Assembly: GCA_014360755.1 (NCBI GenBank)
Contig: JACIWX010000003.1
Location: 27,678-91,677 of the forward strand
DNA: 64,000 nt
DNA from: Chloroflexota bacterium
Lineage (GTDB): Bacteria > Chloroflexota > Anaerolineae > UBA2200
Reading direction: 5' to 3'
Made by a program: the position numbers and the translations under genes. The notes beneath the pieces are model-generated. The model made no database searches. It had not been told where the DNA came from and worked only from the letters and a program-made list of their open reading frames with translations. Position 1 is the first letter of the stretch, and each line of letters begins with the position of its first letter. Below, one piece after another: positions 6,781 through 49,948 of the stretch.

Positions 6781-7380
6781 TCATCCTATCGTCTCGTATA
6801 CACTCTCATCGCTTTTGGGCTTTTCTGGAGTCGCTGGGCGTTGGCTTTCTGAACGGCGAGCGGACGGTTTGGGTGCCAGCAATAAGAATACGCTCTTTGC
6901 TCCTTCCTCCATTGTTGGCGCTTGCTCAACCGTGGCTACATCTGCAAGTTCAGCCGCCAGTCGTTCCAAGAGGTCGCGTCCAATCTCTGGATAGCTTCTC
7001 TCTCGCCCTCGAAACCGTACCCGCAACCGTACCTTTGCCCCATCCGCCAAGAACTCGCGCACTCGCCTAGTTTTGAACGCCAGGTCGTGGGCCCCAATCT
7101 TAGGGTGCATACGGATTTCCTTAATCTCCACCGTGCGTTGGCTTTTACGGGCCAACCTTTCCTTTTTTGTCCGTTCATAGATGAACTTGCCATAGTTCAG
7201 CAGACGGCACACAGGGGGATTGGCGGCAGGAGCAACTTCAACCAGATCCAAGTCCCGCTCCTGAGCAATGCGCAAGGCTTCTCGAATGGGGAATACTCCC
7301 ATCTGCTTGCCTGTTTCGTCAACCAGTCGCACCTCGCTGGCCGTAATCGCCTCATTGATGCGGTGTTCTCTACTGCTTAT
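6781..7380 (-). CDS. infC: Translation initiation factor IF-3, with an atypical ATA start codon
   Basis: ...INEAITASEVRLVDETGKQ is the IF3 N-terminus. An in-frame stop lies just upstream, and ggtgga-N6-ATA fits the known AUU/AUA autoregulatory start. Confidence 0.85.
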   Translation of the reverse strand: MSSREHRINEAITASEVRLVDETGKQMGVFPIREALRIAQERDLDLVEVAPAANPPVCRLLNYGKFIYERTKKERLARKSQRTVEIKEIRMHPKIGAHDLAFKTRRVREFLADGAKVRLRVRFRGRERSYPEIGRDLLERLAAELADVATVEQAPTMEEGAKSVFLLLAPKPSARRSESQRPATPEKPKSDESVYETIG

Positions 7381-7509
7381 TTCGCTTCCACCTCACGTCT
7401 CGATGATTTGGGCAATCGTAACCTTCCCAAGTGACCGGAAACATGCCCATTTAGTGGGCTATCTTATCATATTTATCGTTACTAGTCAAGTTTGCACTGC
7501 TAGCTAAGG

Positions 7510-8025
7510 GGGTGTAGTTCAGTTTGGGGGCAGGATATGGATAAGTGTATACGGCGGACTGTGGTCCGCCTGGAGCGGGATGGATTAGACCTGTCAGGTC
7601 TGTTTAAGATCCCTGGAGTGTGGACGGCGGCGTTTGCCATTGAGCCTGCCAGGGAATTGATTCCCTGGCGGCATCTGGGCATGGGAGCCCATGCCCAGGC
7701 GAGGTGGTCTCTTGCGTCACCCTGAGGCGAAGCCGAGGGGTCTCATGGAACTGAGGGGGAGATTCTTCGCCGCTACGCGGCTCAGAATGACAACGGGAAA
7801 GCAGGTGCTCTCACGTTTGGCGTGGACAGCGGGTGGTCCACCTGGAGCAGTCTCACGCTCAGCGTGGACCGCAGTCCACGCTGGGTATAAGATAGCCCCG
7901 TCTACTTGAGGAGCGAATCCGTTCCCCAAATCTGCTGACAGTGATTGTTCTTGTCCAGACTTGGCTGCTTTCCATCCGCCTGAGGCGGTGTAAGGCATTT
8001 CTTGCCCCAAAAGTGAACTACACCC
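7510..8025. mobile_element. 516-bp hairpin-rich non-coding element. Its ends are 16-bp inverted repeats, GGGTGTAGTTCAGTTT and AAAGTGAACTACACCC, and gctaagg flanks both sides. It is either a MITE-like insertion or a large structured RNA.
   Basis: No credible ORF lies within it. It contains perfect hairpins (ctgggcatggg-agc-cccatgcccag, gccagggaat-tga-ttccctggc, agcgtggac-cgc-agtccacgct). The terminal pairing of 12 bp plus 3 bp spans the whole element. Confidence 0.4.
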
Positions 8026-8092
8026 GTGCTAAGGCTTTCAGGGCTTGGCTAGATTTTTGCTTCGCGCCTTGTCTTGTGCATTCTTTATAAAA

Positions 8093-8127
8093 TTTGACCT
8101 TTCTGAATTTTGGGTATAAAATAGTGC
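8093..8127 (+). promoter_or_regulatory. Sigma70-like promoter for the ABC operon (TTGACC-17 bp-TAAAAT)
   Basis: The sequence tttgacctttctgaattttgggtataaaat lies about 35 nt before the aggaggg RBS and the ATG at 8162. Confidence 0.4.
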
Positions 8128-8161
8128 AAATTGGGAAAATATTCACTGATAGGAGGGATGA

Positions 8162-9082
8162 ATGTTCCGTTATATTGTGCGTCGGTTACTGTGGATGATC
8201 CCGGTACTATTTTTCATCTCAGTAATCACGTTTTCCTTGGCACATGCTGTTCCTGGCGGGCCCTTTGACCGCGAAAAAGCATTGCCCGCTGAGATCATTG
8301 CCAACCTGAATAAATACTATGGACTGGATCAACCGGTGTGGAAACAGTATGTGAAATATATGAGCGATATCCTATTGCGCTTTGACTTTGGGCCGGTGTA
8401 CTCTTCGCGCAGCCGGAGGGTGAATGATATCTTCCGTGACCACCTGCCGATATCAGCGCAATTAGGAGTTCTTGCCATGCTTATTGCGCTGGGCATTGGA
8501 ATTCCTCTGGGCATTCTGGCAGCGCTGAAGCAGAATTCATTCTGGGACTATTTAGGCATGGCTGTGGCTATCTTTGGTGTCTCTGTGCCGGGCATTGTGC
8601 TTGGCCCATTGCTAATACTGATCTTTGCCCTCACGCTAAAGTGGTTCCCCGTAGCCGGTTGGGGCACACCTGCCAAAATGGTCCTGCCCTCTATCGCCTT
8701 GGGCATGCGCGAGTCCGCCATCATTGCACGTTTGACGCGAGCAAGCATGTTGCAGGTGATCCGCGAGGATTACATCCGCACGGCGCGAGCCAAAGGCTTG
8801 ACCGAACGTGCCGTTATGATCCGTCATGCGCTGAAAAATGCTTTCATTCCGGTGGCAACGATCCTCGGACCGATGTTTGCGGTATTGGTAACAGGCACGT
8901 TCGTGATCGAGCAGATCTTTGCCATCCCGGGGATGGGCAAGTATTTTATTACCAGTATTACCAATCGCGATTATCCAGTAGTGATGGGCACGATTTTGCT
9001 CTATGCTGTGTTTTTGGTTATTGCCAACTTAGCGGTAGACATTACGTATGCCTTCCTGGATCCGCGTATTCGGTACACGTGA
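8162..9082 (+). CDS. ABC transporter permease, DppB/OppB type
   Basis: Six transmembrane segments with the EAA-like loop (IRTARAKGL) typical of peptide/oligosaccharide BPD permeases. Confidence 0.9.
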   Translation: MFRYIVRRLLWMIPVLFFISVITFSLAHAVPGGPFDREKALPAEIIANLNKYYGLDQPVWKQYVKYMSDILLRFDFGPVYSSRSRRVNDIFRDHLPISAQLGVLAMLIALGIGIPLGILAALKQNSFWDYLGMAVAIFGVSVPGIVLGPLLILIFALTLKWFPVAGWGTPAKMVLPSIALGMRESAIIARLTRASMLQVIREDYIRTARAKGLTERAVMIRHALKNAFIPVATILGPMFAVLVTGTFVIEQIFAIPGMGKYFITSITNRDYPVVMGTILLYAVFLVIANLAVDITYAFLDPRIRYT

Positions 9083-49877: not shown

Positions 49878-49948
49878 CTGGGGCGGGAGGGTTCGAACCT
49901 CCGTTAACGGATCCAAAGTCCGCTGTGCTACCATTGCACCACGCCCCA
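49878..49948 (-). tRNA. tRNA-Gln (anticodon UUG)
   Basis: The reverse complement folds as a cloverleaf: acceptor TGGGGCG/CGCCCCA (U1-A72, typical of tRNA-Gln), D stem GTGC/GCAC, anticodon stem GCGGA/TCCGT with loop CTTTGGA, and T arm GGAGG-TTCGAAC-CCTCC. CCA is not encoded. Confidence 0.85.

Follow-up and report, generated by a model that had tools for sequence, protein, structure and literature searches.

An intergenic block of 516 bp in a Chloroflexota metagenome-assembled genome (MAG) is, with a probability of about 0.93, a non-autonomous ISKra4-group miniature inverted-repeat transposable element (MITE) that was inserted by promoter-targeted transposition. The block occupies positions 7510-8025 of a 64-kb window (the whole stretch of DNA analysed, 64,000 nt of contig JACIWX010000003.1) and lies between infC on the minus strand and, on the plus strand, an ATP-binding cassette (ABC) permease gene with its ATG at 8162. 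A sequence-only reading of the window had offered two explanations, a large MITE in a divergent intergenic region or a structured RNA of roughly 500 nt closed by a long-range helix. The first is borne out by terminal inverted repeats (TIRs) shared with insertion sequences (ISs), a target duplication, multiple copies and an empty orthologous site in relatives. The element is a clear and fairly ordinary mobile element, a derivative of the ISKra4 family rather than an IS of it, and it reveals no new RNA class, system class or mechanism. Its extent and ends are as follows, with L numbers denoting loci outside the window.

7510..8025, no strand: whole non-autonomous element (MITE), 516 bp, defined by its TIRs, an empty orthologous site in L081-L083, the lack of transposase similarity and a diverged copy in L080
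7510..7539, plus strand: left TIR, whose outer 22 nt, GGGTGTAGTTCAGTTTGGGGGC, are the same as the IS end that holds the transposase stop codon
7996..8025, minus strand: right TIR, complementary to the left one at 26 of 30 positions; the 30-mer is identical in L080, and three Logan contigs start there

The terminal inverted repeat is 30 nt long with a perfect outer 12 nt, and a 20-mer of it occurs in the window at the two ends only, against an expectation of zero. The 16-bp repeats proposed earlier are real and in fact longer, but the 16-mer matches at 15 of 16 positions and is not perfect, with a mismatch at position 13, where the left arm has G and the right arm, once reverse-complemented, has C. 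The ends can indeed pair across the whole element, through the 30-nt repeat. The boundaries are exact, as the ends of the family TIR, breaks in Logan contigs and the empty-site alignment agree on them independently. The family termini GGG... and ...CCC coincide with the element edges, GGG at 7510 and CCC at 8025.

These ends are those of ISKra4-family ISs. One genome per GTDB species was scanned for the pattern GGGTGTAGTTCANTTTNGGGG, which gave 76 stretches against ~4 expected by chance, a figure that we estimated from 19 specified bases in ~1.2e12 positions. All 76 belong to Chloroflexota MAGs, roughly 24 of them (from Anaerolineae, Caldilineaceae, Chloroflexia and other groups). For many the distance to the end of a k141 contig is 119-139 nt, a position typical of collapsed multi-copy repeats. 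Inverted pairs of the pattern enclose an element of 1458 bp in L067 (715-2172) and another of 1448 bp in L012 (5919-7366). The 417-aa open reading frame (ORF) of L067 matches NCBIfam NF033572, the ISKra4 family transposase, with E = 2.5e-59. The transposase gene of L012 is split, and its pieces match the same model at 2e-33 and 2.5e-25. A weak match of the L067 transposase to the ISLre2 model was also found (E = 1.6e-15). REP/RAYT-type 'GTAG' palindromes were considered as a source of the ends and rejected, as the ends belong to ISs with a DDE transposase.

The left end of the window element agrees with the first 22 nt of the IS repeat at 100% of positions. In L067 the stop codon of the transposase lies inside the terminal repeat, the ORF ending at 724 and the inverted repeat spanning 715-735. 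Read in reverse complement, the repeat gives CCC CCA AAC TGA, or PPN*, the last three transposase codons and the stop (compare window 7510-7531). The terminal repeat is constrained doubly because coding sequence and transposase binding site overlap there, and the stop codon inside it probably helps to explain the conservation of the repeat across the phylum. The shared inverted repeat makes an ISKra4-family transposase the candidate protein that would recognise these ends. Partners with identical 22-nt ends are present in other Chloroflexota MAGs, namely in L012, in L067 and at many contig ends of JPAS_maxbin.107. The mobilising partner in the source MAG, if it has one, would be a full-length IS whose ends are of the type GGGTGTAGTTCAGTTTGGGGG. 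JPAS_maxbin.107 (MAG JAKPJZ01; contigs among L005-L079) has more than 25 contig ends that lie within the IS, at a depth of 118-141 nt, and many of them include the C-terminus of the transposase; this indicates an IS expansion that fragments its assembly.

The same ends, with up to three mismatches allowed, enclose fifteen short elements of 62-184 bp, and the IS family therefore spawns MITEs readily. Perfect target duplications abut the GGG.../...CCC termini in some of these, of 8 bp in seven and of 9 bp in one. Two arrangements of units with these TIRs stand apart. In L049 (2517-2845; JAKOPZ010000072.1) a 154-nt unit is present in three direct tandem copies, each with the TIR at its start and a common flank (..CGCTGAGAATAG) at its end, which makes it a one-ended tandem array unlike normal MITEs. 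In L031 (2969-3331; JAKOPZ010000001.1) two 180-bp MITEs with these TIRs stand back to back with 3 nt between them, and both outer ends face a sigma70-like promoter at 15 nt, which suggests that the same promoter region was struck repeatedly.

Several lines show that the window element itself is repeated. Logan contigs from three sequencing runs that carry the identical permease all start at window position 7996, which lies 30 nt (k-1) in from the right end at 8025. Logan uses k = 31, so this shared start marks a de Bruijn-graph branch at the repeat boundary 8025. When JGI metagenomes were scanned for the 30-mer of the right end, a single further DNA copy came up, at L080 8506-9083, which is 578 bp long and has an unrelated gene context. 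A protein search with a 97-aa ORF on the minus strand of the element returned four 'hypothetical proteins', and a cluster look-up extended these to eight on five contigs of one MAG (H5T68_01850, 03205, 04010, 05520, 10465, 10620, 10650 and 11345). The window permease, MBC7232705.1, is in the same accession series and on the same 415,638-bp contig as H5T68_05520, which identifies this MAG as the source genome. Over the part that they share with the translated window sequence, the eight proteins are 81-96% identical to it, and their divergent tails are translated hairpin modules, AARESIPW for example corresponding to GCCGCCAGGGAATCAATTCCCTGG. The eight 'hypothetical proteins' are translations of further element copies and are spurious as proteins. 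Counting the window copy, the source MAG holds at least nine copies, the others being known from their translations. The additional copies foreseen for a MITE are accordingly present in the source genome, at least eight of them, as seen from the H5T68_ proteins and the Logan contig breaks. Within the 64-kb window a TIR scan allowing 3 mismatches and a short-word BLAST search found no second copy.

The insertion can be observed directly against close relatives. Three loci, L081 (JGI Ga0315298_1003413), L082 (ENA ERZ27247713, 108 kb) and L083, encode a permease 99% identical to that of the window, keep the CinA-SpoU-L20-IF3|ABC gene order and have flanks 95.7-96.9% identical at the DNA level. 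All three are without the element, and their infC-permease gap is ~529 bp shorter than in the window. BLAST against them connects window 7500 straight to 8027. The empty site reads GCAC-TGCAAAGG-CTTTC, that is ...GTTTGCAC TGCAAAGG CTTTCAGGG..., and the filled site reads ...GTTTGCAC TGCTA[GCTA]AGG, element, G TGCTAAGG CTTTCAGGG... Compared with close relatives, the element is inserted DNA, and the orthologous site is polymorphic for its presence or absence. The comparison defines the two copies of the target.

7498..7509, plus strand: left target copy TGCTA[GCTA]AGG, in which 4 nt of the 8-bp target are duplicated in tandem
8026..8034, plus strand: right target copy TGCTAAGG (8027-8034), preceded by an extra G (8026)

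The right copy can alternatively be read as a 9-bp duplication with one substitution, if the C/G in front of TGCTAAGG is included; in the family 8 bp is usual and 9 bp occurs once. A T that differs from the relatives is common to both target copies of the window. The heptamer GCTAAGG, taken earlier as the duplicated target, stands at 7503-7509 and 8028-8034. It is not rare, with 11 copies in the window against 7.8 expected, and its placement follows from its being the core of the target duplication seen in the empty site. The heptamer is therefore the core of a real duplication, but that duplication is the 8 (or 9) bp of TGCTAAGG rather than 7 bp, and is imperfect; a 7-bp duplication was replaced by the 8/9-bp one after the empty-site comparison. 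The junctions show two irregularities, the GCTA tandem duplication at 7501-7504 and the extra G at 8026, which may stem from imprecise cleavage or have been carried over from a circular intermediate.

The imperfect TIRs (26/30), the blurred target duplication and the lack of a transposase within the window could also be expected of a decayed, immobile remnant of a full-length ISKra4 element that had undergone internal deletion, rather than of an amplifying MITE family. This is very improbable, as a six-frame comparison shows no trace of transposase coding sequence, at least nine copies in one genome have the same non-coding interior, and the polymorphism among close relatives means that the element moved recently in its short form.

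The position of the element reflects the way in which its family selects targets. The ISKra4 group, named after Ktedonobacter racemifer (Chloroflexi), is reported by Guerillot et al. (2014) to insert 13-17 bp upstream of sigma-A promoters, like TnGBS and ISLre2, and the promoter may be on either side when the repeats are near-perfect complements (PMC3942029). Targeting was tested on 99 unique repeat-flank junctions. An outward sigma70-like promoter whose -35 box starts 15, 16 or 17 nt from the junction was found at 35 of the 99 (13, 18 and 4 cases, respectively), against a background of ~0.3 matches per other offset and 3 in all on the opposite strand. The short MITEs L034, L036, L038, L042, L064 and L066 follow the 15-17-nt rule as well as the IS ends. 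In the window, a promoter scan finds the element flanked by two divergent sigma70-like promoters that both read away from it.

7489..7461, minus strand: infC promoter, TTGACT-17-TAAGAT, the targeted promoter
8094..8122, plus strand: ABC operon promoter, TTGACC-17-TAAAAT

The distance of the infC -35 box from the element's left end is now 20 nt, and its distance from the target end in the empty site is 16 nt, a difference due to the 4-nt GCTA duplication. The L080 copy has a promoter at its right end, 17 nt away. The promoter-adjacent position of the element is a target preference of the family and not a coincidence, and both neighbouring promoters are left undisrupted by the insertion.

On this evidence a course of events can be proposed. 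An ISKra4-type transposase produced from another place in the genome would have bound both repeats and excised or copied the element, by way of the circular intermediate that is usual in this superfamily. Integration would then have occurred on the upstream side of a sigma-A promoter, where the family prefers to insert, and would have duplicated TGCTAAGG; a later GCTA duplication and an extra G may have blurred the copies. The hairpin-rich interior is, on this reading, passenger DNA, made of a few palindromic and ~42-nt modules that differ between copies by gain, loss and duplication.

This interior is dense in hairpins and repeats.

7648..7669, no strand: perfect 10-bp palindromic hairpin GCCAGGGAAT-TG-ATTCCCTGGC, with two copies in L080, one of them with a compensated A:T to T:A change
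7675..7698, no strand: perfect 11-bp palindromic hairpin, of only 7 bp in L080
7553-7570, 7587-7601 and 7862-7881, no strand: 7-8-bp hairpins from the repeat search
7561..7576, plus strand: direct repeat GTGGTCCRCCTGGAGC, copy 1, belonging to a module of ~42 nt, ...GCGTGGACrGCGG..GTCCrCCTGGAGC..., which the element contains repeatedly
7833..7848, plus strand: direct repeat GTGGTCCRCCTGGAGC, copy 2, from the repeat search
7865..7893, plus strand: sub-threshold putative promoter TGGACC-17-TAAGAT, in agreement with the consensus at 8 of 12 positions and for that reason absent from the scan output

The earlier description of several perfect hairpins of 9-11 bp stands for two, those of 10 and 11 bp, while 'several' was slightly generous, the others being of 7-8 bp. 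The internal direct repeat is present twice as described, at 7561 and 7833, against 0.12 expected. Tandem Repeats Finder reported nothing in the element, and its ~42-nt modules are dispersed rather than tandem. It was likewise correct that no ORF of protein-like character is present: the ORFs of the element are short and none is convincingly coding. Six-frame comparison and blastx against the L067 transposase found no ISKra4 transposase similarity in the element, and exact database look-ups of the 97-aa ORF and a 72-aa ORF inside it, and of rplT, returned no record. No intrinsic-terminator-like sites were found within the element. The first 18 nt, GGGTGTAGTTCAGTTTGG, have a superficial tRNA-like look; a tRNA-like element was considered and rejected, as ARAGORN gave no match, and ARAGORN and the Rfam tRNA model find no tRNA in 7300-8200.

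The interior matches none of the other 76 TIR-bearing loci by BLAST and is common only to the source genome and L080. Between the window and L080, ~50 nt at the start and ~225 nt at the end are ~95% identical, and the centre differs by whole modules. L080 holds one more copy of the ~42-nt direct-repeat module than the window, an extra ~41-nt unit of the GCGTGGAC..GCGG..GTCC.CCTGGAGC type. Its AGACCTG.CAGGTCT hairpin is duplicated, and it has a 117-nt palindromic block between two copies of the GCCAGGGAAT..ATTCCCTGGC hairpin. Conversely, a ~100-nt segment is found in the window and the H5T68 copies and not in L080. The 117-nt block (L080 8703-8819) is nearly palindromic, with 58-nt arms that are 71% complementary, is bounded by two GCCAGGGA..TCCCTGGC hairpins and has the appearance of either a nested insertion or a duplication in palindromic form. 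When the minimum free energy structure of the window element was placed on the reliably aligned parts of L080, ~12 pairs were broken and 2 compensated, one of these in the 10-bp palindrome, a test of low power given that it used two DNA copies only.

These observations bear on the alternative that the block is a gene for a non-coding RNA of ~500 nt with a long P1-like closing helix, as in large ornate bacterial RNAs. Termini that can pair, many local hairpins and a predicted folding energy far below that of shuffled sequences (z = -7.2 on the plus strand and -9.5 on the minus strand) are what such an RNA would show. However, both strands fold equally well, as DNA palindromes should, and the supposed helix is the end of a transposase-bearing IS and of 62-184-bp MITEs with unrelated interiors. 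The element is missing at the same locus in relatives that are 96-97% identical, and it lies upstream of both flanking promoters and lacks a strong promoter of its own. Against L080, broken pairs outnumber compensated ones and whole hairpins come and go. Rfam 15 (including OLE, GOLLD, HEARO, ROOL, raiA and group I/II introns) gave nothing at gathering score for the window or the L080 copy, and at E <= 10 both gave chance hairpin matches only. The earlier statement that the block resembles neither RNase P, tmRNA, 6S nor SRP RNA is confirmed by the same search, and the structured RNA put forward beside the MITE is unsupported, having neither an Rfam match, nor occupancy of the site in relatives, nor a global fold kept in L080. 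An RNA gene is very improbable and already largely refuted. The interior behaves as the DNA palindrome modules of a mobile element and not as a conserved RNA architecture.

A further possibility accepts the MITE and adds a host function to it, as an insulator or roadblock, or through a putative internal promoter at 7865-7893 on the plus strand that reads out of the right end toward the ABC operon. Between the window and L080 the centre is rearranged, and yet the right ~225 nt agree at ~95%. Local palindromes persist, in one case by way of a compensated change, and in both DNA copies a gene lies beyond the right end on the plus strand. The -10 region of the internal site, TGGGTATAAGATAGCCCC, is identical in L080 and resembles the -10 regions of both neighbours, at 13/14 positions directly (8111-8124) and 12/12 inverted (7456-7467), the chance of each such match in 750 bp being a few per cent by our estimate. 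The internal site at 7865-7898 may thus be a promoter, or its likeness to its neighbours may merely be a shared promoter consensus. Against a regulatory role, the putative promoter agrees with the consensus at 8 of 12 positions and was passed over by the scan, the element contains nothing resembling an intrinsic terminator, close relatives do without it at the same locus, the comparison rests on two DNA copies, and the conservation may merely reflect recent common ancestry of the end segments. An acquired role is therefore considered unlikely. A broader version, given about the same small weight, would be that a promoter-homing MITE family exploits the affinity of the ISKra4 transposase for sigma-A promoters and so deposits a hairpin-dense cassette ~16 bp upstream of -35 boxes across Chloroflexota, and that the 516-578-bp form is kept for a function of its right ~225 nt, perhaps as an internal promoter or as an insulator that separates divergent transcription units. 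If this were true, the element would be a mobile regulatory module and not pure passenger DNA.

Some findings weigh against the assignment to a promoter-targeted ISKra4-group MITE. The 201.5 bits of the L067 ORF are below the curated cut-off of 205 of the transposase model, the ORF being split and its N-terminal piece adding 41.7 bits. The target duplication is unclean, TGCTAGCTAAGG versus G+TGCTAAGG, so that two small secondary events must be assumed, and the L080 copy is without a recognisable target duplication. The 64-kb window contains no autonomous ISKra4 copy, and mobilisation in trans within the source genome is therefore inferred. The interior is unlike either full-length IS examined, and the element is therefore no simple internal-deletion derivative. 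Lastly, the ~95% conservation of the right ~225 nt between the window and L080 extends far beyond what transposase binding needs, which leaves room for an added function.

Pfam matches on syntenic contigs (IF3_N/IF3_C, Ribosomal_L20 and BPD_transp_1) back the identities of the genes around the element, and the permease is the first gene of an ABC operon of Opp/Dpp type. In more distant relatives, L084-L086 and L087-L090 (permease 95% and 90% identical, respectively), this operon does not adjoin infC; one set has AIM24/PAD_porph genes ahead of it, the other set a second SBP_bac_5 gene, and the infC-ABC junction is therefore specific to the close lineage of the window. The infC gene itself probably begins at a non-canonical ATA codon (7380..7378, minus strand), 7 nt after a GAGGTGG Shine-Dalgarno sequence (window 7378-7395). 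The frame upstream of the listed GTG start (7332) reads ISSREHRINEAITASEVRLVD, which resembles the N-terminus of IF3, and gene callers shorten the product to 156 or 183 aa on the syntenic contigs. Autoregulation of IF3 typically involves unusual start codons. The sole Rfam match at gathering level in the 64-kb window is a tRNA gene at 49878-49948 on the minus strand (68.9 bits).

The assignment accounts for several features of these genomes. It explains a 516-bp orphan intergenic block and eight spurious H5T68_ hypothetical proteins in the annotation, as well as the breaks at element sequence in short-read assemblies of these Chloroflexota. The window and its close relatives also provide a clean filled/empty pair, which can be used for dating and for the study of effects on the infC and ABC promoters.

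The nearest known system is the ISKra4 group of ISs (ISKra2/4/5/6 of Ktedonobacter racemifer and relatives), with Mutator-like DDE transposases of the p-MULT 4 group (PMC3942029). The window element has in common with it the terminal repeat of a ~1.45-kb transposase-bearing IS, GGG ends, an 8-9-bp duplication, a Chloroflexota host and insertion 15-17 bp upstream of sigma-A -35 boxes, which may face either end. It differs in having no transposase gene, one third of the length and an unrelated interior, and in needing mobilisation in trans. With the short MITEs (L014, L017, L024, L028, L030-L038, L042, L064, L066 and L068) it shares the TIR, the 8-bp duplication and the promoter-upstream position, but it is 3-8 times longer than these 62-184-bp elements and has a modular hairpin interior. 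Full-text literature searches found no description of ISKra4-derived MITEs or of such promoter-upstream targeting by non-autonomous MITEs, and the 2014 paper on the ISKra4 group does not mention MITEs (PMC3942029).

TnGBS and the family of ISLre2 (p-MULT 3) have related Mutator-like transposases and the same targeting 15-17 bp upstream of sigma-A promoters (PMC3942029). They differ in belonging to another transposase lineage, in occurring mostly in Firmicutes and in including large conjugative elements, and the asymmetry of their repeats gives their insertion an orientation. Short, non-coding, multi-copy intergenic elements bounded by TIRs, with strong folds and sometimes promoter-like sequences, are also found among the Correia elements of Neisseria, ERIC/IRU, RUP and BOX. 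These have other ends, other target sites and other parent transposases, or parents that are unknown. We know of no MITE of the Correia, ERIC, RUP or BOX type that homes to promoter-upstream positions. The window element and its short relatives thus extend the promoter-upstream targeting of ISKra4 and TnGBS transposases to non-autonomous MITEs.

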